From assembly GCA_017421095.1 (NCBI GenBank), contig JAFQMB010000142.1:1-45576 (forward strand): a stretch of DNA of 45,576 bases, read 5' to 3'. The stretch is from Oscillospiraceae bacterium. Its GTDB lineage: Bacteria > Bacillota > Clostridia > Oscillospirales > Ruminococcaceae. Made by a program: the position numbers and the translations under genes. The notes under the pieces were generated by a model that saw nothing but the letters and a program-made list of their open reading frames with translations, was not told the origin of the DNA and made no database searches. Of this stretch, positions 3,001 to 42,232 are shown piece by piece (the stretch's first letter is position 1; each line of letters starts with the position of its first letter).

Positions 3001-3345
3001 ATGAAAATGCTCCCGCATCAGTTTCAGGCAAAAAGAATGGACGGTGCCGATCTGCGCGGTAGGCAAAAGAACCTGCTGACGGCGAAGAAAATGATCCTGG
3101 GGATGCTGCAAAATCCGGGCGGAAAGGGCGGCGGAAATGCGCTCGCGCATCTCGTTTGCCGCATCGTTTGAAAAGGTGCAGGCCAAAATGCGGTCGATGG
3201 AGGTGGGAGCGATGGGATCAATCAGCTTTTCCAACACCCGCTGGGTCAAAACGGCGGTTTTTCCGCTTCCTGCGGCCGCCGAAACCAACAGATTGCCGCC
3301 CCCGGCATAAATGGCATCCTTTTGTTGTTCGGTCCAGTTTCTCAC
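1..3345 (-). CDS. addA: ATP-dependent helicase/nuclease subunit A (AddA), C-terminus cut by window edge
   Basis: Absent from the ORF track because no stop lies inside the window. The reverse complement of 3345-3241 reads GTG-RNWTEQQKDAIYAGGGNLLVSAAAGSGKTAVLTQ, a UvrD-type N-terminus with a Walker A motif. The reverse complement of 60-1 reads DFETDSKEEMVLQGVADCVF, a RecB-type nuclease motif, in the same frame. The GTG start overlaps the addB TGA stop (GTGA). Confidence 0.9.
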   Translation of the reverse strand, partial: MRNWTEQQKDAIYAGGGNLLVSAAAGSGKTAVLTQRVLEKLIDPIAPTSIDRILACTFSNDAANEMRERISAALSARILQHPQDHFLRRQQVLLPTAQIGTVHSFCLKLMREHFHLTGLDPTFRVADGMEQSSLFSLALDEALEAAFAADESGNFSRLAASLGKGADDKALSELVERLYRLLMSCPWPEEWLEEKLSLYTDSRSAEDSVIWQTVFSLAESDFVFLETEYESLLDEIATYEDLMQKGYHEPFVADLAATKRVLLAIQNKDAEAFYAALQEYTHPRLVTVRNLLPEVRENCKDRRDELKKIYQNWKNIVVQSPEEYRAQMLLDSDGVRRLFDVVKDLADRYAEKKKERQLVDFNDLEHGALALLTEKRPDGSHQPSSLAKQIAAGYDEILLDEYQDINGVQEAIFRAVSKKDQNRFMVGDMKQGIYRFRLADPSLFAEKKERYTPYAPGSAFPAKIILGKNFRSRKEITDFINRIFSAIMTRENGGLDYGEEDALVPAADYPEKDEEMVSCFFLETKEHSATEVQAEFIAAKIEKMLEKGIEVYDRGVYRPCRPSDFAILLRSVKNKASVYLKELAKRGIGAIADSGDAFFETKEISFLFSLLQAIDNPLLDLPLAAAMTGPVFHFTATQLAQITAWDKKETGSVRGLYVRLNAFAASGDKKDLQEKVKEFLSRLRFWRLQASCLTAQEMIRRILEETDLENLLAVMSGGAERVARVRQLLSLAAARENGGYLGLSGFVRLLADWQEKEIKPETALSFGNESCVRILSIHKSKGLEFPIVFLADLQKKFNMQDSNKNALVHEKLGVCLKGRIPEIHREYDTLPHKMAARLMRSEERSEEIRVLYVALTRAKERLYLVAAGKDLEKEVQNRQDAARLFYPDLRHTVAACYDPLSLFCTAMAEEPDLTGAQKQKGFTVFFYEEGVLSDIKDVKNEPKKLPTFEPDPAEEEQIRLQMEFVYPHLTAVSTPAKRSVSQLKKEAAGEKLESYPVDAKLPRPGFLSEEKISAAARGTMAHLVLEKIDFAAARADLEKELQRLTRRGILTEKEISAVPRANLAAFFGSDLVGRMIKGKIYKEQRLLFRLPLSLVDFETDSKEEMVLQGVADCVF

Positions 3346-6300
3346 TGCCACGGGCTGCTCACCTCTTCTCCGTTCATCATCGGTTTTTGATGGGACTCTT
3401 CTGCTTGAAGCAACCGATAAAAAGCATCTTTATCCGGCTCGCTCATGGTCAGCGTTTTTTCTGCCATCTCGTTTTGGCAGATAGCTTGATAGGCGCAATA
3501 ATCGCACCGACAGCTCTTTTTGGTCACCCGGGGCAGCGCCTCGATCCGACCCTGCATCAATTGATCTGCCATTTCGCAAAGGGCCTTTTCCACATGGGCT
3601 CTGATGGCCCCGAGTTCCTGCAAGGTTGCCAGCGTTTCTTCCTTGGAATAGCCGCCGTTTTTTTTGCAGGCAGCAGGAATAAACAGTCCTTTTCCTGTGG
3701 GATCCATCCCGGAAAGCACCGCCTCATCCTGTAACACAATTCCCTGCATGGGGAACTGACGGATCACCTGCTCATCCGAAAGGGTTTCGCTCCCCTCTTT
3801 CCATTCGGGTCGGGCAGGGAAATAAAGAATACCGGCAGGGATTCGGTTGCCGTAACGCGTTTCTCCGTCCCGCCAGATGGAAAAGAGATACAAAAGCATC
3901 TGCAGATTCAAACCGTAATAGACATCCCGCAGGGCGAAATCCTTGGTGCCCGATTTATAATCCACCACCCGGATATATTTGACCCCCTTCTTTTCCATCA
4001 CATCCACCCGGTCGATCTTACCCACTACCGAAATCTCGTTGCCGCTTGGAGTGCAAAGGGTGAAGGCAGGTAATCCTTCCCTTTCGTCGCCCATGGGAAG
4101 TTCCGGATCCACAGGAACAAATTCCGACTGTTCAAATTCCAACGCCAACCGACGAATCATCAACGCCAGCGTGGACGAAATTCGGGTCAGTTTCGCCTTT
4201 TGCCGAGCAGAAAGGCTTTCAATATCACAAAAATTCTCTTTGGCAAAGGCATAGACCTTTTCCTTGCAAAAGGCCTTGATTTCGGCTTCGGAAAGGGCGA
4301 TCAGCCCATCGCCGCCAAATTCCCGAACAGCATCTTCCAACACGCTGTGAATGAGATTTCCGGCCTCCAGCGGAGCGATCTCTGCCTTGCGGCGCTCTTT
4401 CAAAAAGAGGGCATATTCCAAAAAATAAGAAAATTTACAACCGTAAAACCGATCCACCCGAGAGGCACTGAGTTTCACCGGACTGCCATAAAGGGTTTTG
4501 GCCGCCTCCTGATCTTCCAATTTCCAAATTTTCGGAAGAGACGCCTCCTCCAAGGCCTCTGCGGCAGCAGGATCTATTCTTTTCAAGGCACCAAACAAGG
4601 TAGCCTCTTCTTTTGTTCCCCGGCCAAAATGGGCCGAAGCCTGGGTGCGAAGGGTTTCTTTGTTGCAAACAAACAAAACAGGATCCAGCGCCGAAGCCTT
4701 TTCTTCTTCCAGATCCCAAAAAATCTCCTTCACATTTTGCAGATATCGGCTGGGCTGCAAGGGGGCATAATTTCTGTCTGTTCCGGCATAGGTAATAATC
4801 ACCTTTTCCGAAGCAGCGGTCAAGGCGGTATAAGCCACCAGATCCTCGCGGATGGCCATGGATTCTTCCAATCCGCCCAAATCAATCTCGCATTCCAGCA
4901 AAGCGCGGCGATCTTTTGGGGTCACCAAACTTCTGTTTTCCCCCTCCAACGGCCAGCTTCCGTGTGTAAACCCGCTGACAAAACAGATTTTTCGGTTGTC
5001 GGTTCTTATGCGGTCGGCGGTCCCCAAAAGAACGCTGTCCAAGGTGTTTGGCACTTCCCCCAAGGTGTATTGGGCGATTTGCAGATCATAAAGACGGATA
5101 AAAGTGGGCAGATCCATGGATTCGTTTCCAAAATGGGCCACAAACTGATCAAACACCGCTGCCAGACAGGCATAAACTCGACGGCTTTCTTCCAGCAAAT
5201 CGGGCTCGTTCCCCATCTCTTTTGTATAATGTTCTTCCAGATGCCGCTGGACCTCTTCTTTTTCCAAAAATTCCCATATTTTTGCGGCAAAAGTTCTGCC
5301 GTCTGCCTGTTTCAAATCATCTTGCAGATGCAAAAGCGGCCCAATCAGCCCTTTTCTGACCGATTCCAAATGAGCCAGTTCCACTCGATCCCGGCTACTC
5401 ATTTCCCCTTTCATCCCACTGGGCGGAGAGAGAAAGGGCTTTTTCCAACGGCCGCGGTCGATCTGCCAGATATAGGCATAATTTTCCAATTGGCTGATGG
5501 TTTCGTCATCCAGACCGGTGGCGCCGGTTTTGACATAGCGCAAAAGATCTTCGGTTTGAAAACCATAGCGCAAGACATCCAAAAGGGCGCGCAAAAACAC
5601 CGCCAGCGGCTTGTTTGCCACCGACTCTCTTTGATCCAAAAAGAGGGGAATCTGATATTTTGCAAAGGTGTGGGCAAAAAGATCGGCATTTTCTTCCAAA
5701 GATCGGGTGATGACCACCACATCTCGGAAGCGAACCGCCTCTTTTCGAACCGCTTCCAAAATCAAAGCGCAGACGGTTTCCACCTCCTGATAAACATTGT
5801 CGCAGGCCAAAATCCGCACTCGTTTTTCGCAAGAAACCTTTTCCGGCTTCTCTTCCGATAAAAAGCCCTCTTCCAGTGCCAAAAGGGCATCGTTTTTCGC
5901 CCGCAGGTTTTTTTGCAGGAAAACGGGCGCAGCCACATCCGCACCGCATCCTCTTGCCAGAGAAAGCAGATCCTGCAGGGTTTTATGATTTTCCGAAAAA
6001 AGGCCAAATCCACCGCTTTTATCCCGTAATCCATCGGAAGTCAGCGCAACAACCACCTTTTCTGCCTGACACAGCATCACCGACAAAAGTTGACTCTGTG
6101 CTTTGGAAAACCGATCAAAGCCATCCAGATAAAAAACGCTGCCGGCAAAAAAGTTTTCCGATTCTGCCGCCTCAGAAGCACGGATCAAACAGTCTGCCGG
6201 ATCCATCACGCCCTCTTCGATCAACTGCTCATAAGAAGCATAAAGGGCCGCCAAGTCCGAAAGGCGCATTCCCATTCCCTTGGGCAGTTTGCTTGCCGCC

Positions 6301-6709
6301 TCTTCCAGTTGCAAGGGGTCACCGCACAGGCGGAAGCCTCGTCAAAAAACGCCAAAAGCTGCTCCGCAAAACCGGGGGCGGTTGCCGCCTTTTGATAAAC
6401 CTGCAAAAGATCCTGCACCGTCATCGCCGCTCTGGCCGCCAGCAGCGCCTTTCCCCCTGCATCCAAAAAGCGGGGACTTTTGCCGGCTGCTTCAAAAATT
6501 CTTGTAGCCAACCGGGTGAAAGAAAGCACCTGCAAACGGAAAAAATCCGGCCCTGCCAACTGGGATGCCAGATTGCATTCACTTTCAAAGGAAAACTGCT
6601 CGGGCACCAAAAAGACCACGTCTTTTCCTGCCGCCAAATCTTCTGCCATCTGTCGGCGCAGGGTTTCTGTTTTTCCGCTTCCGCTGCGGCCGATCACCAG
6701 TTGCAGCAT
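3342..6709 (-). pseudogene. addB: ATP-dependent helicase/nuclease subunit B (AddB), split into two ORFs by an apparent 1-nt frameshift near 6315
   Basis: ORF 6221..6709 carries the N-terminus with Walker A (GRSGSGKT). ORF 3342..6314 carries the remainder, including the C-terminal Fe-S/nuclease cysteines (CRCDYCAYQAICQ). The frames meet at ...ACAVTP / LQLEEAAS; one extra C in the CCCC run (plus-strand GGGG 6315-6318) would restore a single ORF. Confidence 0.8.
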
Positions 6710-9534: not shown

Positions 9535-11310
9535 TTACATCCCCATTCGGGTAACACCCCAATACATCCGCTGATTTTTCACCCGCTCCCGTTGTTCTTC
9601 ACTCAACTGATCCGCTTTGGCCCAGGCCGCATCGATATGCCTGCTGATGACATCCTCGTAAGGATGATAAACCTCAAACAAATAAGGAGCAACCCAGGTC
9701 ATGGTAAAGGTGGATTTACAATGCTCTGCCGCATCTGCCAAGCAGCGATAATAAAGGAACATATCCTCTGCTGCTGCCCCATAAAGTTTTTGGCAGGCAT
9801 CATAAAGAAGAGTTTCCGCATCCCTGCTGTCATCCCACATTCCAACCGCCGTGGGATACCAAAGAGGCCAACGCAAGACCCCTTCGTCGCCATGGGCATC
9901 GTAAAACACGTCGTCCACCCCATAGGCTTCAAAAAGTTCCAGATTTCTTGTGGTCACATTTCCCTGCACCCAAGGAGCCATATCCCAACCGGCTCTGGTG
10001 CCGCTGAGGCAATACCAACCCCAGATGGCCTTGTGCTGCAATTCGGAGTTGGTGATATAATCGGAAACGCTGTCCTTCCAGGATTGGGTATAGGTGTTGT
10101 GGGTGATGCTGTTGAAGCCGGTGGGAATCAGATGCCCCTCATCCAAAGGCAGCATCAGACTGGTTTCCAAACAGAACATCACCTCTACGTTGGGCAGCGC
10201 CTTTTCTTTCACCGGCGGGAAAAAGGTGGTGTGATAGGCCAAAATGCTGATCTGTCGGTCGGGGTATTTTTCTCCCACAATTTTGGCCACATTGTTGGCA
10301 AAAATGAGCAGCTCATCGGTGTCGCTTCCGGCCGCCACGCACCTTTCACACTCGCACCAGTTTTCTTCCCAGCCGTCGTTGGCTGCAATGGAATAGTTGG
10401 TCTGCATCGGTCTGGCATCAAAAATGCTGATAATCCGCCCGGCCACCTCTTTGGCCAGTTCCTCGTTGGTATAACAATACTGCCAATAGGTGAAACGGCC
10501 GGGGTCTCTTGAACCGTCCACCAAGGCAAACCATTCGGGATGCTCTTCATAATAAACCGAAACCGGAATCAAACCGGGCACTCCGTGGCCGATGTGGTTC
10601 ACCTGGCCGCCCAAATACCAACGACTAACGAGATTGGCATCCAGTCTGTTCAGCCGACGGGAAGAAAATCTCGGGCTCTGTTCCAGGTCCACCTCATCCA
10701 CGCCCAAGCTTTCACAGGATGGAATCACCTGCCAAAGGGGATCGGCAGCAAACCAACCGCATCCCGCCTCTTCCAGAAAACGGTTTACCGCAAACTGGGT
10801 GCCGGTATAGTTGCCCGAATCGTTTCCGCAAAGAATGAGATAATTTTCCTTGCGCTTGATCACCAGTTTTTCTTCGCCGGGATATTCCTCAAAGGGGCCG
10901 ACGCCCAGCGCTTTGGTTTTTTCGGTCATCCCCACCAAAATATAATTGCCTTCTGCGGTCATTTCGCTTTCGCTGATTAAGGGCAATACCACACCGGTCA
11001 TTTCGGAAATATGATATTGCAGATCCCAGGCCGCTTTTTCGGCTTTTTCTTCTTTTTGATCGGAAATCACAATCATGGCCCTGGCTGTCTTTTCTTCCAC
11101 CAGTAAAAAATCGTCTGTTTCCGGTGTTTGAGAAACAAACTTTTCATCAAGAACCGGCAACGCTCTCTCTACATCCGCCTCGTAATTTGATGTTTCGGAA
11201 GAACTCTTCTCTTCTTTGGGCGGATTTTGCTCACAGGCAGTCAAAACCATCATACCGCTCAAAAGGAGCGCCAGGAAAAACGCCGTCAAACGCATCGTTC
11301 GCTTCATCAT
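9535..11310 (-). CDS. DUF4838-like putative glycoside-hydrolase-related lipoprotein (paralog 1)
   Basis: Start at MMKRTMRL (11310), after a GGGGGA RBS. The signal peptide has a lipobox (LTAC). Family-like blocks include GNYILVG...NYLILCGNDSGNYTGTQFAVNRFLEEAGCGWF, NDGWEENWCECERC and GWYC. Confidence 0.8.
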   Translation of the reverse strand: MMKRTMRLTAFFLALLLSGMMVLTACEQNPPKEEKSSSETSNYEADVERALPVLDEKFVSQTPETDDFLLVEEKTARAMIVISDQKEEKAEKAAWDLQYHISEMTGVVLPLISESEMTAEGNYILVGMTEKTKALGVGPFEEYPGEEKLVIKRKENYLILCGNDSGNYTGTQFAVNRFLEEAGCGWFAADPLWQVIPSCESLGVDEVDLEQSPRFSSRRLNRLDANLVSRWYLGGQVNHIGHGVPGLIPVSVYYEEHPEWFALVDGSRDPGRFTYWQYCYTNEELAKEVAGRIISIFDARPMQTNYSIAANDGWEENWCECERCVAAGSDTDELLIFANNVAKIVGEKYPDRQISILAYHTTFFPPVKEKALPNVEVMFCLETSLMLPLDEGHLIPTGFNSITHNTYTQSWKDSVSDYITNSELQHKAIWGWYCLSGTRAGWDMAPWVQGNVTTRNLELFEAYGVDDVFYDAHGDEGVLRWPLWYPTAVGMWDDSRDAETLLYDACQKLYGAAAEDMFLYYRCLADAAEHCKSTFTMTWVAPYLFEVYHPYEDVISRHIDAAWAKADQLSEEQRERVKNQRMYWGVTRMGM

Positions 11311-11360
11311 CCATCCCCCATTTATGTTGAAACAACTTCTAAAAAAGGAAATCTTCGCTG

Positions 11361-13007
11361 TCAAATATTTTCTTTGGTTTCTGATAACAGGGTTTTGGTC
11401 TTGGCCCAATAGCCAAGCTGATTTTCCACCCGTTCTTTTTCCTTGGCGTTCAATTGATCCAAAAGGGGCAAAACTTCATCCACCGCCTGCTGGATGGCAT
11501 CATACTCTCCATAAACCTTATAAACCGCCGGGGGAAGCCAGGTGATCGCATCAGAAGATTGGCAGGCCGCCGCCGTTTCGGCCAATGCCATATAATAACG
11601 AAACATCCCCTCTGCCGCCCTGCCAAAGAGCCGATGGCAGGCTTCATAAAGAACACTTTCCGCATCCCTTTTGCCATCCCACATTCCCATGGCGGCGGCA
11701 TAATAAAGGGGCCAGCGAACCGGAATCTTTTCGGGGCCGCTGCCATCAAAGAAAACGCGGGTCACACCGGCATCTTCCCAAAGTTTCAAATTTCTTGTGA
11801 TCACATTGCCCTGCACCCAAGGCACCTCAATCCAATCGGCAAAATCGGTGCCGATGCAATACCAACACCAGATGGTGGGATGAGCCACCTTTCCCTTTTG
11901 GATATACTCATAAAAATTATCCTTCCAGGACTGGGTATAGGTCACCTGGGTGATGGGATTGGGGCCGGTGGGAATCAGGTGTCCCTCATCCAAAGGCAGG
12001 AACATGCTGGTTTCGGTGCAGAACATCACCTCCACATTGGGCTCCACCTCCATATTGGGCGGAAAGAAGGTGGAATGATAACTAAGAATGGAAATAAAAC
12101 GGTCGGGGTGGGTTTTTTGCAAAATCTTTGCCACCTTGTTTATCAAGGTTAAAATTGCATCCGATTTGTTTTCCCGTTTGCGGCACGCATCACACTCACA
12201 CCAGTTTTTATCCCAACCGTCGTTGGCGGGCAAGGGAAAAGAGACCATATTGGGGGTTTTATCAAAGTATTCCCCGATGTTTTTGGCCACCGTTTGGGCA
12301 AGCTGATCGTTGCTGTAACAATACTGCCAATATTCAAACCGATTGGGATCTCTTTCGCCATCCACCAGCGCAAAGAATTCCGGATGGCTTTCATAGGCAG
12401 ATTTGGGCGCAAACCAGGGCAGACCGTGGCCGGTGATCATCTCTTCGCCGCCCAAAAACCACCTTTCCCCTAATTTGCCGACGTTGCTGATCTGACGGCT
12501 GAAGAATCTGGGAGTGTGAACCGCACAAAGGCCCTCTTCCACCCCAAGATCGGAAAAAGACGGGATCACATTCCAAATTTCCTCGTTGCCATAAAATCCG
12601 CATCCCGCTTCCAAGAGAAAAGCGGTCACCGCAAACTGGGTTCCCTTGAAATTCCCGGTATCGTTGCCGCAAAGGATCAAAAAATTCCCGATCCGCTGCA
12701 AAACCGTCTGTTCGCCGCCGGGATAGGTGGTAAAGGGGCCGATTCCAAGGGCCTTTGTCTGCAAGGTTTCTCCCACCAAAATGAAATTACCCGTTGTCAG
12801 GTCGGCTTCACTCTCTTTTTTGATGGCAAAATCTCCGCCGGTGATGGCATCCAAATGGGTTTTCAGATCCTCTGCCGCGGCTTGTTCCTTTTCCTTTGCC
12901 ATATCAGGAAGAATGATGCAGGCAACAGCCTTTCCCCCTTTGGCCAGCAAAAGATCTGCCTCTTTGAGATTTCCGGTCACATATCGTTTTTGCAGTTGGG
13001 GCATCAA
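11361..13007 (-). CDS. DUF4838-like protein (paralog 2), no signal peptide
   Basis: A strong RBS (AAAGGAGG, 7 nt) precedes the ATG at 13007. The sequence starts directly at the conserved mature domain (MMPQLQKRYVTGNLKEADLLLAKGG). It shares the same blocks as its neighbours, including NWCECDAC. Confidence 0.8.
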   Translation of the reverse strand: MMPQLQKRYVTGNLKEADLLLAKGGKAVACIILPDMAKEKEQAAAEDLKTHLDAITGGDFAIKKESEADLTTGNFILVGETLQTKALGIGPFTTYPGGEQTVLQRIGNFLILCGNDTGNFKGTQFAVTAFLLEAGCGFYGNEEIWNVIPSFSDLGVEEGLCAVHTPRFFSRQISNVGKLGERWFLGGEEMITGHGLPWFAPKSAYESHPEFFALVDGERDPNRFEYWQYCYSNDQLAQTVAKNIGEYFDKTPNMVSFPLPANDGWDKNWCECDACRKRENKSDAILTLINKVAKILQKTHPDRFISILSYHSTFFPPNMEVEPNVEVMFCTETSMFLPLDEGHLIPTGPNPITQVTYTQSWKDNFYEYIQKGKVAHPTIWCWYCIGTDFADWIEVPWVQGNVITRNLKLWEDAGVTRVFFDGSGPEKIPVRWPLYYAAAMGMWDGKRDAESVLYEACHRLFGRAAEGMFRYYMALAETAAACQSSDAITWLPPAVYKVYGEYDAIQQAVDEVLPLLDQLNAKEKERVENQLGYWAKTKTLLSETKENI

Positions 13008-13082
13008 AATTCCTCCTTTGTCGGGGCAAATTTCTCACCCGACCAACATTTTATCCGTTTCTGTTGATGAAAAACAATCAAA

Positions 13083-14852
13083 TCAAAGATTGACCTTGGC
13101 ATAAAGCCAATATTTCAGCTGGGTTTCCACCCTTTGGCGCTCTTCCTCGGTCAAAAGGTCCAGTTTGTCCTTCGCCGCGAGGATCGCCTCGTCGATTTCC
13201 TGCTCATTGACACTGTAAATATCCAACACATAAGGGGGCACCCAGGTCATTCCGTAAAACTGCTCGCCATACTCCGCCGCGTCGGCCAAATGCCGATAAT
13301 AGAGGAACATCTCCTCTGCCGCCGCTCCATAAAGCTTTTGACAGGCATCATAAAGAAGGGTTTCCCCATCCCGACTGTCATCCCACATCCCAACGCCAAG
13401 GGCATAAAACAAAGGCCAGCGCAGATCGGCCAGTTCGCCGTTGCAATCATAAAAGACTGTTTTTATCCCCATCTCTTCAAAGAGATCCAGATTTCTTGTG
13501 ATCACATTCCCCTGCACAAAGGGCACCCGGCCCCATTCTCCCCGCCCGGTGGCAATGCAATACCAACCCCAAATAGATCTGGTCTGCAATCCGGTATCAT
13601 CCATATATTGCTGCACGCTGTCTTTCCAGGATTGGGTATAAACATTTTTGGTCAACCCGTGGATACATTCGTGGATCAGTTCCCCTTTTGCCAGATCGGC
13701 CATGGGGCTGGTTTCCAGGCAAAACATCACTTCGGTGTTTTTGTGTGCCTTGGTCTTCAAAGGGGGCAAAAAGGTGCTGTGATAGGCCAGAATACTGATT
13801 GTTCTGTCGGGATATTTCAAACTTGTGATGGCTGCCACATTGTTGGCCAACACAAGCAGCTGATCGGTTTGGTTGCCGGCCGCCCGGCATCTTTCGCACT
13901 CACACCAGCCCTCGTCCCAACCGTCGTTGGCCGCCACCGTATAGCTGGTCAAATTGGGGTTGCCGTCAAAATTGTTCATCACTTTTTGGGCCACAAAAGC
14001 CGCCAAATCGGGATCGGTATAACAAAATTGCCAGTATTCAAACCGACCGGGATCTCTGGAATCCCCCACAAGGGCATACCATTCGGGATGCAGATCATAA
14101 TATCCGCTCCCTACCAACCAGCTCATTCCATGGCCAATGGTGTTTTGCTGGCCGCCCAAATACCATCTCAATCCCAGGTTATAAGAAATGCCGCTCATAC
14201 TTCGGCTTTCAAAACGGGGGGATTGATCCATATCCACCTGCCCCACCGCCAAAGACGACAGGGTCGGCACCACCTGCCAAAGGGGGTCGTTTGTGAACCA
14301 ACCGCATCCGGCCTCCTCCAAAAAACGGGTCACCGCATTGAATGTTCCCCGAAAACTTCCGGTGTCATTGCCGCAAAGGATCAGATAATTTCCTGCCCGG
14401 CGCAGGGCAAAGCCCTCCCCTTCCGGATAGGCGGGATAATTCCCCTCGCCCAAGGAAAGAGTTTGCTTTGTGGCACCGATCAGGATAAAATTCCCCTCGC
14501 TAAGATCAGCATCGTCGGTGATGATCTCAAGCAAAACATTTGTCATTCGGTTCACATAATTTTGCAGATCATAGGCGGCGGCCACCTCTTTGTCGGTGGC
14601 CTCTTTTGGAATCACAATTTTTGCGGCCGCAACACCATTCTGTACCAACAAAAGATCCCCTTCTGCAGGCGAATCGGTGACAAACTTTTTGGCCATTTGG
14701 GGCAGCGGGCGATCGCTGTCCGGCCCCTCACTCACCGTTTCGGAAACGGGTTCGCTCTTTTCAACCTCCACTTTTCCGCAGGCAGAGAGCAGGCAAAGAA
14801 CAGCCAGCAGCAAAGCCAGCCAAAAAGCAACCGTTTTTTCTTTTCTGCCCAT
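13083..14852 (-). CDS. DUF4838-like putative glycoside-hydrolase-related lipoprotein (paralog 3)
   Basis: GGAGG lies 7 nt before the ATG at 14852 (MGRKEKTVAFWLALLLAVLCLLSACGK; lipobox LSAC). By eye it is roughly 60% identical to paralog 1 over the aligned blocks. Confidence 0.8.
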   Translation of the reverse strand: MGRKEKTVAFWLALLLAVLCLLSACGKVEVEKSEPVSETVSEGPDSDRPLPQMAKKFVTDSPAEGDLLLVQNGVAAAKIVIPKEATDKEVAAAYDLQNYVNRMTNVLLEIITDDADLSEGNFILIGATKQTLSLGEGNYPAYPEGEGFALRRAGNYLILCGNDTGSFRGTFNAVTRFLEEAGCGWFTNDPLWQVVPTLSSLAVGQVDMDQSPRFESRSMSGISYNLGLRWYLGGQQNTIGHGMSWLVGSGYYDLHPEWYALVGDSRDPGRFEYWQFCYTDPDLAAFVAQKVMNNFDGNPNLTSYTVAANDGWDEGWCECERCRAAGNQTDQLLVLANNVAAITSLKYPDRTISILAYHSTFLPPLKTKAHKNTEVMFCLETSPMADLAKGELIHECIHGLTKNVYTQSWKDSVQQYMDDTGLQTRSIWGWYCIATGRGEWGRVPFVQGNVITRNLDLFEEMGIKTVFYDCNGELADLRWPLFYALGVGMWDDSRDGETLLYDACQKLYGAAAEEMFLYYRHLADAAEYGEQFYGMTWVPPYVLDIYSVNEQEIDEAILAAKDKLDLLTEEERQRVETQLKYWLYAKVNL

Positions 14853-15022
14853 AAAAACACCTCCGAAATGGCACATCTTCTCGCCTTTATTCTATAAAAG
14901 AACCACAAAATCGGCGAGTTCAGATTGGCTCTTTTTGTGTTCTCAATCACCTGTTTTTTCCAAGTTTGCTGTCAAAAAGCAGGAAATGACACCTCCCCTT
15001 TTTCATCTTTGAAAAATAGCAC

Positions 15023-38243: not shown

Positions 38244-38888
38244 TCAGCCGGTTCCTACACTATAAATTTTCCATCCTCCACCTTTCGTTCTTACCATTGT
38301 ATAAATCAAATAACTTTCCGTATAAGGAAGCGCCGCGCCGCCGGCATATGGGGAAGAACGATATTTCACACTAAAAACCATACAACCGACGTATGTGACA
38401 TCATCTCTCTTCTCGGAATTGATATACGCAAGTTTGCTTTCGGAAACATCGTCGCCTGAATAGGTGACAGAATACAATCTCGTTTTTGTTTCGGGCCGAT
38501 ATTGATATTTGATCAGTGCGATCACCTCGCCTATCTCTTCTTTGGTATAAACCTCAGAGGTTCGGTAGTCGATCGTTGGCGGCCAAAAATCATTGCAGAA
38601 CAGAAAAACGATCAGCGCAAGAAAAGCCGAAAGGCAAACCCAAACCGTAATCTTTCTTTTCATTCTTTTCTTTACCGTTTTGAAATCCGCAACAGCGCAG
38701 CTATTATCCTTATTCTTTTGCGCGATGATATTCTCTGCTTTGCCCGGTTTTGCCAAACGCTCCAGTTTTGCGGCGCAATCCGGGCAGCTTTTCAAATGCG
38801 CCTTGATATAATCGGCGGTTTCGGAACTGACCATCTCTTCCAAATAAAGGGGAAGCAGATCACAAACCACACAGCAATCATGTTTCAT
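38244..38888 (-). CDS. anti-sigma factor (zf-HC2 N-terminus, one TM, extracytoplasmic domain)
   Basis: The HLKSCPDC (H-x3-C-x2-C) zinc-finger motif and TM segment ITVWVCLSAFLALIVFLFC. The start overlaps the ECF sigma stop by 11 nt. Confidence 0.8.
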   Translation of the reverse strand: MKHDCCVVCDLLPLYLEEMVSSETADYIKAHLKSCPDCAAKLERLAKPGKAENIIAQKNKDNSCAVADFKTVKKRMKRKITVWVCLSAFLALIVFLFCNDFWPPTIDYRTSEVYTKEEIGEVIALIKYQYRPETKTRLYSVTYSGDDVSESKLAYINSEKRDDVTYVGCMVFSVKYRSSPYAGGAALPYTESYLIYTMVRTKGGGWKIYSVGTG

Positions 38889-39378
38889 TCTGTTGTTCCT
38901 CCCATCTGCTTTTTATCATCATTCTCGCACGGTGATAGGTCACGCAGGCCCAATTTTCAGATTTTTCGAATATTTGGCCGATCTGTTTGAAACTCAACTC
39001 TGCAAACACCCGCCACATAAAAACTTCTTTATACGGATCGGGGAGCTCGTGTAAAATATTTTGAATTTGCAAAGTTTCTTCGTTTCTGGCAAGCGCTTCC
39101 TCAAGATTTTCGCCTTGGTCGGCGAGATTCAGAAGTTCGGGATCATCAACAAGCTCCATGCGCTTTTTCTTTTTCAAATAAGAATAATAACAATTCTTGG
39201 CAATCTGACAAAGCCAAACCCGAATGTCGCAATCCCCCCGAAAACGGTCAATGGCGTTCATTGCCTTGAAAAAGGTGTCTGCGGTGATTTCTTCCGCGAT
39301 CTGCTCATCACCGGACAATTTGCGGATGTATCGGAAGACATCGGTAAAATACATCCGATATATTTGTTCAAATTCCAT
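38878..39378 (-). CDS. ECF-type RNA polymerase sigma-70 family factor
   Basis: 166 aa. Region 2 is DVFRYIRKLSGDEQIAEEITADTFFKA...FRGDCDIRVWLCQIAKN; region 4 is LPDPYKEVFMWRVFAELSFKQIGQIF..SENWACVTYHRA. Confidence 0.88.
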   Translation of the reverse strand: MEFEQIYRMYFTDVFRYIRKLSGDEQIAEEITADTFFKAMNAIDRFRGDCDIRVWLCQIAKNCYYSYLKKKKRMELVDDPELLNLADQGENLEEALARNEETLQIQNILHELPDPYKEVFMWRVFAELSFKQIGQIFEKSENWACVTYHRARMMIKSRWEEQQNET

Positions 39379-39405
39379 CGACCGATCACCTGCCTTCGTA
39401 TATAT

Positions 39406-39431
39406 GACGCTTGAAAACAGAAAATCTTACA
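39406..39431 (-). promoter_or_regulatory. possible ECF-type autoregulated promoter (TGTAAG-16-CGTC)
   Basis: On the minus strand, TGTAAG (39431-39426), a 16-nt spacer and CGTC (39409-39406), 28 nt upstream of the sigma ATG. It only partly matches the xxAAC/CGTC pattern. Confidence 0.25.
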
Positions 39432-39686
39432 AAATATTTTGCGGAAATTTCAAAAATTTCTTGCCGCAATTTTATTTTACTACTTTATACGGCGCAGCAC
39501 AAGAATCCAATAAAAAATCACGCTGAAAGCGTGTATGGAATCAGGCCGACAAAACATACTCTTTCGGTGATACCATCCGCGACTTCGTCGCAATTCCATG
39601 ATAGTCCTTCCTTCGTCGGCCCGGATAAAAAATAGCCTGCTTTCGCAGGTCGTTTTTTGCCCAATGTGAGAAACTTGTATCAAAAC

Positions 39687-39809
39687 AAAACGGGGTTGGT
39701 CTTCTCTCGCAAAAGTTTGGCAAAGCCTGCGGCTTTGCGAGGCTCAACAATGGGAAACTCGTATCAAAAACAAAAAGACCCATCTTGCGATGAGTCTTTT
39801 TGTTTTGGT
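39687..39809. repeat. copy A (partial) of the ~165-bp tRNA-Leu-associated repeat
   Basis: 39691-39809 matches copy C at 117/119 positions by hand alignment. It contains the GCAAAGCC-tgc-GGCTTTGC hairpin and the AGACCCATC-ttgc-GATGAGTCT terminator hairpin, but lacks the tRNA-3'-like head. Confidence 0.85.
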
Positions 39810-39854
39810 AATTGTACTTTACGATGAATCCCGCACTGCGAATTATGGCCACAA

Positions 39855-40331
39855 TTATGCTGTTTTGTAGTATTTCTTGATTAACTCTTCGAGTTTTTCA
39901 TCATCACAACTAAGATGCGTGGTTGAGATGGTATTGCCATCAGCATCAAAAGTTTCTCCGTATCCGGCAGAAGAATAAAAGGTGTATTGTCCGTTGGAGA
40001 AGTTGATTCTAATGACCCAGTCGCCGTATGAAAAACTGGGGTCCATTGCCACAAGGGCAAAGATAATGGTGTCCGAGAATTTGAGGTTTGAAAAATCATC
40101 CAAAAAAGCTTCATTGTCTTTTTCGGATAATGTATAGGCAGGCTCATAGATTTTATCAAACCCCGGCTCGCCGTTTCCCTCCTGAATGCGCAGATCATAA
40201 AACTGTATCGAAACTATTTCTTCGGCGGAAATATCATAATATTTTTTGACAGGGATTATGATACAAGCGCTCAAGGAGAAAAGCAAAACAAAAGTCATAA
40301 TCATCAATAAAAACTGTTTGAACCGTTTCAT
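39855..40331 (-). CDS. small lipoprotein of unknown function
   Basis: GGAGG lies 8 nt before the ATG at 40331. MKRFKQFLLMIMTFVLLFSLSAC carries a lipobox. I recognise no family. Confidence 0.7.
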   Translation of the reverse strand: MKRFKQFLLMIMTFVLLFSLSACIIIPVKKYYDISAEEIVSIQFYDLRIQEGNGEPGFDKIYEPAYTLSEKDNEAFLDDFSNLKFSDTIIFALVAMDPSFSYGDWVIRINFSNGQYTFYSSAGYGETFDADGNTISTTHLSCDDEKLEELIKKYYKTA

Positions 40332-40404
40332 CACCGCACCTCCTCTATGGATATTATACAGCAAAAAGAAAACAATCGCAACTCATATCAATGCGGTTGT
40401 TCTT

Positions 40405-40576
40405 TGATTCGGATAACAGGAGTTACGGACCTACGTTTTGCGCCAAAAAACGAAACGGGGTTGGCCCTTTCTCGCAAAACTTCAGCAAAGCCTGCGGCTT
40501 TGCAAGGCTCAACAATGGGAAACTCGTATCAAAAACAAAAAGACCCATCTTGCGATGAGTCTTTTTGTTTTGGTGC
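40405..40576. repeat. copy B of the ~165-bp tRNA-Leu-associated repeat
   Basis: 40410-40576 versus 41772-41938 gives 159/167 identical with no indels (hand alignment). It begins with a tRNA-3'-end mimic (cggataacaggagttacggacctacg) and ends in ttttggtgcag. Confidence 0.9.
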
Positions 40577-40652
40577 AGTGAGTGATGATAAATCCGAACC
40601 AAATGCCTCTTCAAAGTGGAGCGTAGATGAAAAACGGCAAACTACAATAACA

Positions 40653-41501
40653 TTAGAGTTCTTTAAAAAAAGCCTCGGTCTTTCCGTGAAGGTCAAAGGA
40701 ATGCCACGCGATTGCAATGTTTTCATTGTAATTTATATAAAGATATTGCCCCATCATTCCGCCTTTTGCATATCCTTTTTCTTTTTTACCAAATTCGTAA
40801 GCGCGTTCCAGTACAATGTTAACCCATTCTTGTGATATAATTCTTTCTCCGTTCCATAATCCGTTATTCAAATAAATACGCCCAAGCTTTACCATATCCT
40901 CTGTGCGTAAATAAAGTCCGGTTGCACCAACAGGATAGTTTTTAGGGCATTTTGACCACGCAACTTCACGACAGCCTATTTTTTTAAAAAGACGGTCCAT
41001 AAGAAATTCATCAAGCTTCTCGCCGCTTATTTTGGTTACTATACGGGAAATAAGATAGTAGGCTGCATCAGAATAATCCCTGATCGTTCCGGGATCATTC
41101 GTCAACTCGCGGTCAAGCACAATAAACAGAAAATCATCCGTAGGGTATGTTGTAATGTCTTCTGTGTCAATATCAAGAAAGCCTGCGGAAAAGCCGATTT
41201 TATGGCGCAAAACATGATCGATCGTAACATTTTGCCATTTTCTTTGAGGAATTCCATACTGTTTCAGCTCGTCAGAAAAAATATCTGCAATCGTTGCATG
41301 GGGTGAAAGTTTTTTTTCGTCAAAAAGCATCCCTATTGCTGTGACGCAAAAAGCTTTAGCGACCGAATAACAGTTTTGACAAGGATTTGCCGGTATTCTT
41401 TCAAGAGTCTCAATTCCGTTTTCGGTAGAGACACTCAAGCAGTATGTGTTTATATCATTTCTTTTGGCAATATTATCAAGCTTTGTCAGTATGTCCAACA
41501 T
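40653..41501 (-). CDS. beta-lactamase-family serine hydrolase (PF00144-like), cytoplasmic
   Basis: GGAG lies 6 nt before the ATG at 41501. It has an SxxK motif (YSVAK), a YSD motif (Y-x-N position) and no signal peptide. Two 60-nt samples I counted in this gene were 35% GC, against 48-50% in flanking core genes. Confidence 0.75.
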   Translation of the reverse strand: MLDILTKLDNIAKRNDINTYCLSVSTENGIETLERIPANPCQNCYSVAKAFCVTAIGMLFDEKKLSPHATIADIFSDELKQYGIPQRKWQNVTIDHVLRHKIGFSAGFLDIDTEDITTYPTDDFLFIVLDRELTNDPGTIRDYSDAAYYLISRIVTKISGEKLDEFLMDRLFKKIGCREVAWSKCPKNYPVGATGLYLRTEDMVKLGRIYLNNGLWNGERIISQEWVNIVLERAYEFGKKEKGYAKGGMMGQYLYINYNENIAIAWHSFDLHGKTEAFFKEL

Positions 41502-41546
41502 TTTCTTCTCCAATCAAGTCAGTTTGATTATTTGCATTATCGCTTT

Positions 41547-41578
41547 GGTATAAAATTGCAACGGAAATTTTTTATACC
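41547..41578. promoter_or_regulatory. 9-bp inverted repeat GGTATAAAA-N14-TTTTATACC in the serine-hydrolase 5' region
   Basis: The arms lie at 41547-41555 and 41570-41578, between a candidate promoter (minus strand TTGCTC-17-TATACT) and the RBS. Confidence 0.3.
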
Positions 41579-41716
41579 GTTTATAGTATAGCATAAAAGG
41601 CATGGAAGAGCAAGTGATATGCGATGGAACTGATCCAAGTAGCGCTTTCATAATACTAATTTGCAGCAAGTAAGCATTACAGATCACCGGAACACACGTT
41701 TTCTGCGAAAACATAA

Positions 41717-41760
41717 AGAAATCCGAACCCTTCGCCTACCGGCTTTGGGTTCGGATTTCT
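41717..41760 (-). terminator. 14-bp-stem hairpin immediately after the pseudo-tRNA 3' end
   Basis: AGAAATCCGAACCC (41717-41730) pairs with GGGTTCGGATTTCT (41747-41760) around a 16-nt loop. On the minus strand it is followed by TTATGTTTT. Confidence 0.5.
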
Positions 41761-41767
41761 ACTGTTT

Positions 41768-41932
41768 GGTGCGGATAACAGGAGTTACGAACCTACGTTT
41801 TGCGCCAAAAAACGAAACGGGGTTGGTCTTCTCTCGCAAAACTTTGGCAAAGCCTGCGGCTTTGCGAGGCTCAACGATGGGAAACTCGTATCAAAAACAA
41901 AAAGACCCATCTTGCGATGAGTCTTTTTGTTT
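41768..41932. repeat. copy C of the ~165-bp repeat, directly abutting tRNA-Leu(CAG)
   Basis: It starts with tggtgcggataacaggagtt (41768-41787), identical to the tRNA 3' end at 41933-41952. It then has a 2-nt insertion and diverges. It carries the same two hairpins; its terminator hairpin serves the tRNA operon. Confidence 0.9.
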
Positions 41933-42019
41933 TGGTGCGGATAACAGGAGTTGAACCTGCACCGAGTTGCCCCGACTAGAACCTGAATCTAGCGCGTCTG
42001 CCTATTCCGCCATATCCGC
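41933..42019 (-). tRNA. tRNA-Leu (anticodon CAG), class II with long variable arm, CCA encoded
   Basis: Minus strand: GCGGATATGGCGGAATAGGCAGACGCGCTAGATTCAGGTTCTAGTCGGGGCAACTCGGTGCAGGTTCAACTCCTGTTATCCGCACCA. Acceptor stem GCGGATA/TATCCGC; anticodon stem CTAGA/TCTAG with loop TTCAGGT. Confidence 0.93.
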
Positions 42020-42069: not shown

Positions 42070-42156
42070 TGGTGCAGACGGCGAGACTTGAACTCGCACG
42101 AGCTTACGCTCACTACCCCCTCAAAGTAGCGTGTCTGCCGATTCCACCACGCCTGC
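42070..42156 (-). tRNA. tRNA-Leu (anticodon GAG), class II, CCA encoded
   Basis: Minus strand: GCAGGCGTGGTGGAATCGGCAGACACGCTACTTTGAGGGGGTAGTGAGCGTAAGCTCGTGCGAGTTCAAGTCTCGCCGTCTGCACCA. Anticodon stem CTACT/GGTAG with loop TTGAGGG. Confidence 0.9.
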
Positions 42157-42203: not shown

Positions 42204-42232
42204 ATTCTATCACGCCGCATCCTGATTGTCAA
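42204..42232 (-). promoter_or_regulatory. promoter of the tRNA-Leu pair (TTGACA-17-TAGAAT)
   Basis: On the minus strand, TTGACA (42232-42227), an exactly 17-nt spacer and TAGAAT (42209-42204), about 45 nt upstream of the first tRNA. Confidence 0.7.

Follow-up and report, generated by a model that had tools for sequence, protein, structure and literature searches.

The 45,576-nucleotide (nt) contig JAFQMB010000142.1 from an Oscillospiraceae bacterium (assembly GCA_017421095.1), referred to here as the window, carries on its minus strand a tandem pair of tRNA-Leu genes, behind which three copies of a ~165-bp repeat separate two single-gene units, one encoding a beta-lactamase-family serine hydrolase and the other a lipoprotein. 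The repeat is best explained as a duplicated tRNA-Leu(CAG) junction region rather than as an element in its own right. The reading that we favor, with some reserve, is that the array is a tandem series of integrase-less single-gene islets at tRNA-Leu, which were probably made by an integrase. It draws on the anatomy of the locus, its copies of the tRNA tail, its polymorphism among strains, the foreign base composition of the units, and parallel cases in other species.

The repeat appears to derive from the tRNA-Leu(CAG) junction

A first reading of this DNA, made without database searches (the sequence-only reading), had described the tRNA pair, and both ARAGORN and Rfam called the two genes on the minus strand: tRNA-Leu(GAG), the first of the pair, at 42070-42156 (45.9 bits in Rfam), and the intact tRNA-Leu(CAG) at 41933-42019 (54.6 bits). 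A promoter-like site of the pair, TTGACA-17-TAGAAT with a TG, lies at 42204-42232 on the same strand and scored 11/12 in a consensus scan, as a sequence match only. The tRNA-Leu(CAG) sequence was 100% identical across every strain contig containing the gene, and its last 20 nt (AACTCCTGTTATCCGCACCA) are the source of the tails found in the repeats.

A repeat search and MAFFT alignment recovered the three copies where the sequence-only reading had placed them: copy C at 41767-41932, copy B at 40405-40576, and the truncated copy A at 39682-39809, with spacings of 1362 and 765 bp between copies. B and C (the latter compared over 41767-41938) were identical at 162/172 positions and A and C at 125/128, in both cases ungapped, close to the hand counts of 159/167 and 117/119 made earlier. 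Each of the sub-motifs diagnostic of the repeat had exactly three occurrences in the window, where shuffled sequences predicted about 0 to 0.05, and there was no fourth copy.

Read in the tRNA sense, the full repeat is composed of a terminator (T, 45 nt), a spacer body (Xb, ~80 nt), a 22-nt part with a pseudo T-arm, GTAGGTTCGT (P), and a tRNA tail (F). Copy C begins directly behind the CCA of tRNA-Leu(CAG) and consists of T (41932-41888), Xb (41887-41808), which holds a GCAAAGCC-GCA-GGCTTTGC hairpin, P (41807-41787), and F (41786-41767), the last of these being AACTCCTGTTATCCGCACCA, a 20/20 match to the 3' end of the tRNA on the same strand. Copy B opens with GCACCA, the last 6 nt of the tRNA (40576-40571), continues through T, Xb, and P, and ends in a variant tail (F', 40424-40405) that matches the tRNA end at 17/20 positions, GCACCA being changed to GAATCA. 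Copy A comprises ACCA (39809-39806), T, and Xb, has no P-F, and abuts a flank common to all strains. The tRNA 3'-end copies with which C and B end were absent from the sequence-only reading; the tRNA 3'-end sequence CGGATAACAGGAGTT occurred three times in the window, against 0.05 expected.

The order of the locus in the tRNA sense is thus tRNA-F, T-Xb-P-F, the hydrolase unit, GCACCA-T-Xb-P-F', the lipoprotein unit, ACCA-T-Xb, the common flank, and a gene pair for an extracytoplasmic function (ECF) sigma factor and its anti-sigma factor. The bases ahead of each displaced T are the last six (GCACCA) or four (ACCA) nt of the tRNA, and since these tRNA-terminal bases and the terminator recur at the right end of each unit, every gene unit sits within a tail/terminator junction. 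Within the T loop the similarity of the repeat tail to the tRNA ends abruptly; the 22 nt that precede the 20-nt tail showed no significant likeness to the tRNA, a pattern that fits a recombination junction rather than a decayed tRNA duplicate. For this reason, and because Rfam gave no tRNA match ahead of the tail, we rejected a decayed second tRNA-Leu as the origin of the whole repeat.

Folded as DNA in the tRNA sense, the whole repeat was more stable than shuffled sequences (z = -5.2). The fold is dominated by two hairpins that had already been recognized: one is a long stem with A/T flanks and a GCAA cap, the other is GCAAAGCC-GCA-GGCTTTGC. The GCAA-capped hairpin has the shape of a bidirectional intrinsic terminator and probably works as one. 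The T part was 100% identical in all three copies, compared with 91-96% for the body. Because the duplicated block includes the tRNA terminator, each inserted gene would inherit a terminator. The flank common to all haplotypes (39379-39681, minus strand) carries a small bidirectional terminator-like hairpin at 39636-39649; it was considered as an older, decayed repeat copy, a candidate dropped when its local alignment proved no better than shuffles.

Each interval holds one promoter-bearing gene of low GC content

In agreement with the sequence-only reading, we found one credible coding sequence per interval between consecutive copies, both on the tRNA strand. The hydrolase unit (40577-41766, minus strand) contains, in the tRNA sense, a 13-bp hairpin with a T-rich tail (41717-41758), a promoter at 41585-41613 (TTGCTC-17-TATACT, read from the sequence and kept before homologues in other species, at loci L061 and L148), and a coding sequence at 40653-41501. 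This gene encodes a 282-amino-acid (aa) serine hydrolase of family PF00144 (Pfam E = 6.6e-22), and all of its homologues are likewise 282 aa long. The lipoprotein unit (39810-40404, minus strand) is built alike, with an imperfect hairpin, a promoter at 40353-40381 (TTGCGA-17-TATAAT, 10/12 in a promoter scan), a GGAGG ribosome binding site, and a coding sequence at 39855-40331. Its 158-aa product has a signal peptide and the lipobox LLFSLSAC and matched no Pfam, NCBIfam, or PHROG family; 52 homologues make up its family. Each unit therefore has the predicted form of a complete transcription unit, in which an upstream hairpin, a sigma-70-type promoter of its own, and the gene are followed by the shared terminator.

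The GC content is 38.8% for the hydrolase unit and 38.6% for the lipoprotein unit, compared with 49.9% for the window and 52-55% for the DUF512, recA, and xpt genes. No integrase, recombinase, transposase, or PF00589-type match was found in a Pfam scan of 36 non-overlapping open reading frames (ORFs) over the window, several of which matched no family, in line with what the sequence-only reading had reported.

Some smaller features lie near the ends of the units. At the right end of the hydrolase unit (40590-40600) we noticed a partial copy of a hairpin arm (AAATCCGAACC; in the tRNA sense, GGTTCGGATTT). GGTTCGGATTT repeats the 3' arm of the 13-bp hairpin at the left end of the unit and is inverted relative to its 5' arm, and the arm copies would flank the junction if the hydrolase unit were circular. 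An 11-nt inverted repeat near the two ends of the hydrolase unit has no counterpart in the lipoprotein unit. The right ends of both units share GGATTYATCRT, 14-15 nt before CCA.

Strains differ in the presence of each unit

Contigs of the same locus were obtained by exact-protein look-ups from other samples and from one NCBI metagenome-assembled genome (MAG), mapped with BLAST, and then aligned. Exact look-ups with the window's DUF512 and hydrolase proteins gave nothing on record. The flanking genes are 98-100% identical among the strain contigs, and four states of the locus were found. Both units are present in the window, L050, L051, and L053 (state H1). The hydrolase unit is missing from six strain contigs (L001, L048, L049, L052, L054, and L065), in which the order is tRNA-T-Xb-P-F'-lipoprotein-ACCA-T(34 nt)-flank (H2), and the lipoprotein unit is missing from L002, which reads hydrolase-GCACCA-T-Xb-flank (H3). 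In L004, Xb-P-F is fused straight to T(34 nt)-flank, giving an empty junction (H4). The sequence-only reading had named identical gene content in related strains, with the repeats arising by simple local duplication, as an outcome that would speak against integration; what we observed is presence or absence of each unit, and its suggestion of serial tandem integrations at a tRNA gene is borne out both by these differences and by the displaced tRNA 3' ends in the repeats.

H1 and H2 were each recovered from several independent samples, each with its own single-nucleotide polymorphisms, and hence are not assembly collapses. In seven contigs from other strains, copy A is represented solely by the first 34 nt of T. 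Tails of the GAATCA type always accompany the lipoprotein unit. The Xb variants assort without regard to the neighboring units: the "B-type" Xb stands ahead of the lipoprotein in H1 but ahead of the empty junction in L004. Taken together, the linkage of GAATCA and the assortment of Xb confine the unit boundary to the final few nt of the tail, and the independent assortment of Xb shows that recombination within the repeats is ongoing.

The repeat was found at this locus only

A profile of the repeat searched with nhmmer gave nothing in 1.23 Mb of related loci. Scanning a genome collection with the 19-nt hairpin returned 42 loci, in which BLAST and inspection of the flanks found only the 19-mer in common, with no flank similarity and no orthologous locus. 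Neither the spacer nor the pseudo-tail had any match among viral contigs, and a degenerate spacer pattern had none in metagenomes; when the tRNA and repeat were compared by BLAST with phage and plasmid collections, the match was to the tRNA only. Neither the hydrolase nor the lipoprotein has relatives in the viral contigs. Relatives of the DUF512 protein were found at 80 metagenome loci (best identity, 58%), none with a tRNA-Leu downstream. A generic repetitive extragenic palindromic (REP) or terminator element dispersed at many sites, which the sequence-only reading had named as a possible outcome, was thus not seen in the window or in the collections searched. In Rfam 15, only the two tRNAs passed; the repeat gave hairpin-only matches of 27-30 bits, against gathering scores of 55-80, so the search of the repeat that had been proposed earlier returned no family beyond the level of a hairpin.

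The 42 genome loci with the exact GCAAAGCC-GCA-GGCTTTGC hairpin (L006-L047) include many Clostridia, and in some of them the hairpin stands in local repeat arrays, with three copies at 101-nt spacing in Yeguia hominis (L042), two at 187 nt in L043, and two at 268 nt in L026. A Bacillota MAG (L017) and Thermoanaerobacterium butyriciformans (L045) have identical ~150-nt flanks around it. These recurring loci hint at one or more unrelated hairpin-bearing repeat families. In a separate observation, the human-fecal "Bacteriophage sp." contigs MT836921.1, MT835911.1, MT835693.1, and MT835905.1 break off at, or no more than ~120 nt past, a tRNA-Leu that shares 91-93% identity with that of the window and has its 3' end outward; assemblies of related gut bacteria may often break right behind tRNA-Leu.

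Similar insertions occur behind tRNA genes of other species

Outside the species, the nearest relative of the hydrolase, at 87% identity, is encoded immediately after a tRNA-Leu(CAG) whose chromosomal surroundings differ from those in the window (L061-L064). About 300 nt past the hydrolase gene of L061 there is a displaced 48-nt 3' half of this tRNA. It reaches from the anticodon stem onward, its T loop is enlarged by a 4-nt insertion, and its alignment outscored all 2000 shuffles. By its sequence, positions 6750-8205 of L061, like the corresponding region of L062-L064, form a 1.37-kb integrase-less islet with the classical island signature. Just past the tRNA terminator of L061 there is also a short stretch resembling a tRNA D arm (TGGCGGATAATTGGC), although 82/2000 shuffles scored equally well.

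A 68%-identical homologue of the lipoprotein in another species (L066, 9004-10477) follows a degenerate tRNA-Ala(CGC) tail together with a hairpin and a promoter. This tail-hairpin-promoter arrangement is a 75-nt direct repeat (73% identity) of the block behind the real tRNA-Ala(CGC) 844 nt upstream, and a lone SF0329-family gene lies between the real tRNA and the degenerate tail. The region upstream of the window's lipoprotein gene resembles, by eye, the hairpin-promoter block that follows the tRNA in L066. As judged from this layout, L066 has the same insertion style as the window at a different tRNA and in a different species.

Behind a tRNA-Met, at L056 8262-12078 and in L057-L059, a hydrolase homologue stands in a row of small genes, among them three whose products of 100, 117, and 89 aa look membrane-associated from sequence. 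The intergenic modules of this row are repeated and consist of a terminator, a run of short hairpins each after AATGATG, and a TTGACA-17-TATAAT promoter. We ruled out the row as an array of the same kind because no tRNA-Met tail copies were found, and the mechanism there probably differs. A 54-nt in-frame tandem repeat encoding KIYxGEYGRNCAYHI-type peptides is present in three copies at L056 11433-11594 and in five at L058 2499-2768; since the two loci carry an identical hydrolase protein, its copy number varies.

The array resembles and departs from known systems

In the tRNA gene (tDNA) islands cataloged by Islander, an intact tRNA gene and a displaced fragment of the same tRNA mark the island (PMC4383910). 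The locus shares with these islands an intact tRNA-Leu(CAG) and displaced 3' fragments in the same orientation at the unit boundaries, and with tDNA islands in general it shares presence/absence variation among close relatives, atypical base composition, and tandem arrangement. It departs from them in having one gene per unit and no tyrosine integrase in the units or the window, in duplicating the tRNA terminator and ~100 nt of spacer along with the tail, and in the "empty" repeat that always adjoins the real tRNA. Islander discards candidates below 2 kb or without an integrase, its islands ranging from 2 to 200 kb (PMC4383910), and the repeat spacings of 1362 and 765 bp fall below that minimum.

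Cis-mobilizable elements (CIMEs), described together with tandem accretion at attR for elements of the ICESt1/ICESt3 type and for streptococcal tRNA-Lys elements, are flanked by attachment (att) sites and lack integration and transfer genes; by accretion, new arrivals integrate into an att site bearing the displaced end of the target gene, which produces tandem arrays and complex excision patterns (PMC5704250). Like CIMEs, each unit here lies between a copy of the tRNA tail and a tRNA-end/terminator junction, which would act as att sites, and carries no mobility genes. Unlike CIMEs, the units hold one gene instead of several kb and show no trace of decayed mobility genes. No cognate integrative and conjugative element, integrative and mobilizable element, or prophage with the same att was found in the viral, phage, plasmid, genome, and metagenome scans.

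The tycheposons of Prochlorococcus integrate successively at one tRNA, neighboring elements being separated only by a partial tRNA, and older elements are pushed deeper into the island, where remnants with extra partial tRNAs are scattered (bioRxiv 10.1101/2020.12.28.424599). Successive insertions at one tRNA with partial tRNA copies between units are also what the window suggests; tycheposons, however, carry a tyrosine recombinase and replication modules, none of which were seen here, and the present host belongs to an uncultured Clostridia lineage.

The window also resembles an integron array in that single-gene units in one orientation are separated by structured repeats of similar size, the content varies by strain, and each unit is seen without the other as well as together with it. 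Integron cassettes are typically promoterless, unlike the two units, both of which carry a promoter. The head of the array is formed by the tRNA pair and the DUF512 radical-SAM gene; intI, attI, and Pc are all absent. Nor is the repeat an attC with RYYYAAC ... GTTRRRY cores, consisting as it does of a duplicated tRNA tail and terminator. Reading the repeat for such cores turned up one GTTGAGC in the spacer, at chance level, with no RYYYAAC partner on the same strand. The resemblance to a cassette array that had been remarked on earlier therefore does not extend to membership of the integrons, given that the integrase and attI are missing, the units have their own promoters, and the repeat is not an attC.

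Proposed origin of the array and alternative explanations

From these data we infer a single-crossover mechanism, an order of events, and the involvement of an integrase. The duplicated block would consist of the last 4-20 nt of the tRNA, the bidirectional terminator, and ~100 nt of adjoining DNA, and would be copied at each single-crossover (Campbell-type) entry of a small foreign circle at the tail/terminator junction. Single-crossover insertion at the 3' end of a tRNA gene is known to leave an intact tRNA, the inserted DNA, and a displaced fragment (PMC4383910). The insertions would have been made by a tyrosine integrase encoded elsewhere, leaving CIME-like islets stacked by accretion. If the pseudo-tRNA tails serve as secondary attachment sites, new units would land behind the intact tRNA without damage to it. 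In the sequence of events that we propose, a first element would have left T-Xb-P and a displaced tail, a state like H4; the lipoprotein unit would then have entered the tail/terminator junction, giving H2, and the hydrolase unit, with its own T-Xb-P copy, would have entered afterwards to give H1. Finally, homologous recombination between the near-identical 165-bp repeats could delete, exchange, and re-assort units among strains.

This history fits most, but not all, of the data, and several observations weigh against the proposed origin. As described above, the Pfam scan found no integrase in the 45-kb window, and an integrase-bearing relative with the same attachment region was found in none of the viral, metagenome, genome, phage, and plasmid collections. 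The units, at 0.6 and 1.2 kb, are far smaller than islands usually are. Formally, the array can be read in more than one register. An "empty" repeat and never a unit follows the intact tRNA, and copy A has no tail; with both of these features, simple accretion would call for one more remnant element and for secondary deletions. The short flanks of the lipoprotein unit are imperfectly identical, unlike those expected from a fresh conservative site-specific event. The empty junction was seen in one contig, L004, a 968-nt metagenome contig that starts inside Xb, and the hydrolase-only state in one MAG contig, L002, the first 74 nt of which do not match the hydrolase gene, so that the gene there is truncated or the contig is chimeric. 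Finally, hydrolase homologues of two more species (L148 and L150) adjoin no tRNA; their unrelated contexts, together with that in L056, show the gene to be mobile among genomes and only sometimes linked to a tRNA.

Could the array have been assembled by RecA alone, with no site-specific recombinase? In such a scenario, which we regard as possible though doubtful, DNA from related strains or species that carried a tRNA tail and its downstream region would have recombined at the locus, the tRNA and terminator acting as a portable homology anchor. Entry would be by a single crossover of a circularized fragment or by homology-facilitated illegitimate recombination, and the repeats would drive later gain, loss, and exchange. 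At 165 bp and 94-98% identity the repeats are ample for RecA, and recombination between them could yield loss of either unit from the two-unit state. The independent assortment of the spacer-body variants and the missing integrase are also in keeping with this route, and recA, recX, and addAB are all encoded within the window. Each unit, moreover, starts like a natural post-tRNA region, with an A-rich stretch, a hairpin, and a promoter, and the same arrangement is found at L061 and L066, where homologous genes lie directly behind a tRNA or a pseudo-tRNA tail. What RecA alone leaves unexplained is the origin of the first 20-nt duplication of the tRNA tail and the boundaries of tRNA similarity, which fall at the T loop (window and L066) or the anticodon stem (L061). 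Such boundaries point to a tyrosine integrase acting in trans: Williams is said to have described both, in 2002, as sublocations used by tyrosine integrases. Table 1 of Islander lists T-stem-region and anticodon-centered attP classes (PMC4383910). The difference between the empty junction of L004 and the lipoprotein-only state is likewise bounded by an imperfect repeat of only 4-8 nt, too short for RecA, and this again points to an integrase.

The remaining alternatives start from the repeat itself or from a more elaborate platform. An integron-like gene-shuffling platform run on tRNA genes by uncultured Clostridia, in which a recombinase encoded elsewhere would move promoter-bearing single-gene cassettes through tail/terminator junctions and decoy pseudo-tRNA tails behind the real tRNA would be safe landing pads, strikes us as unlikely. 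It is consistent with the occurrence of each unit without the other, with the same-style single-gene insertions at tRNA-Leu(CAG) and tRNA-Ala(CGC) in other species, and with GGATTYATCRT, shared by both right ends at the same distance from CCA. Less probable again is that the 165-bp repeat is a non-autonomous mobile element resembling a miniature inverted-repeat transposable element (MITE) or REP, derived from a tRNA tail, that invaded an existing row of genes at three points, each behind a CCA-like end. It is compact and strongly structured, with a tRNA-like tail at its end, so that each insertion would recreate its own target, and many other Clostridia genomes have its 19-nt hairpin (GCAAAGCCGCAGGCTTTGC) in contexts that look repetitive. 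Those genomes, however, have the 19-mer only, without flanking similarity. Dispersed copies at unrelated sites, as MITE or REP elements would have, were not found: there are three copies in 45.6 kb and none beyond the locus in the window, in ~1.2 Mb of related loci, or in the genome, metagenome, viral, phage, and plasmid collections. Strains vary in the gene units and not in the repeat alone, and no terminal inverted repeats or target-site duplication were noticed on reading the sequence, which was not a dedicated test. Slightly less probable still is a functional RNA or regulatory module kept in three copies by selection, whether as a terminator/insulator or as a small RNA that might pair in antisense with the tRNA-Leu tail. 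The folds beat shuffles on both strands (as RNA, z = -5.2 for the plus strand and, with the terminator left off, -3.3 for the strand in tRNA sense), the terminator is more strongly conserved than the body, and the plus strand would hold 20 nt complementary to the 3' end of the tRNA. There is, however, no promoter-like site upstream on the plus strand, Rfam at E <= 5 gave only trivial hairpin matches, and reading the alignment, with no pair-count test, revealed no compensatory changes among the copies. A terminator role accounts for the conservation of the hairpin but not for the tRNA-tail copy or the strain polymorphism; a functional RNA is compatible with islets stacked at the tRNA gene and is no replacement for them. 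The earlier proposal of a tRNA-3'-derived MITE or small-RNA family thus goes unsupported, the searched data having shown no further copies, no Rfam match, and no plus-strand promoter, and even together the mobile-element and functional-RNA explanations remain improbable.

Surroundings of the array

The first conserved gene pair distal to the array (38244-39378, minus strand) encodes, by Pfam, the ECF sigma factor (38878-39378) and a zf-HC2 anti-sigma factor (38244-38888). The pair was found in every strain contig extending that far, and its GC content of 42-44% is likewise under the window mean. The low-GC stretch (~38-44%) of the window, at 38244-41800, takes in this pair as well as the two units, and because it extends past both units, the pair may be an older acquisition at the same site.

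The other Pfam matches in the window are to housekeeping genes: addAB, htrA, the gene for the CCA-adding enzyme, der, plsY, spoIIR, ispF, degV, xpt, recX, recA, and the DUF512 radical-SAM gene. addB appears as two overlapping ORFs in different frames (window 3342-6709), with positions 1-138 of the ADDB_N profile in 6221-6709 and the remainder in 3342-6314, which indicates a frameshift or a sequencing error. Three DUF4838 paralogues of 624, 548, and 597 aa lie in a row on the minus strand at 9535-14876.

Implications for gene turnover at tRNA genes

tDNA islands, accretion, and CIMEs are already established kinds. What is unusual here is the single-gene size of the units, their lack of a mobility gene, the pseudo-tails that apparently act as landing pads behind an untouched tRNA, and the occurrence of each unit without the other in a natural population. 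At this locus, genes come and go at a tRNA site on the smallest of scales: single, apparently self-expressed genes of less than 1.4 kb, without a recombinase of their own, have been acquired and lost by strains within a gut-type species of Clostridia. If an integrase acting in trans made the insertions, the pseudo-tRNA tails would define its minimal attachment site, and the site could be a neutral landing pad in organisms that now have no genetic tools. If RecA alone was responsible, the locus would illustrate, cleanly and in nature, how a tRNA gene can anchor homology between species. An integron-like platform of tRNA tails driven in trans, if true, would be much more interesting. Standard island finders demand an integrase and at least 2 kb and would therefore miss such islets; more accessory genes may turn over at tRNA genes than metagenome-derived genomes reveal.

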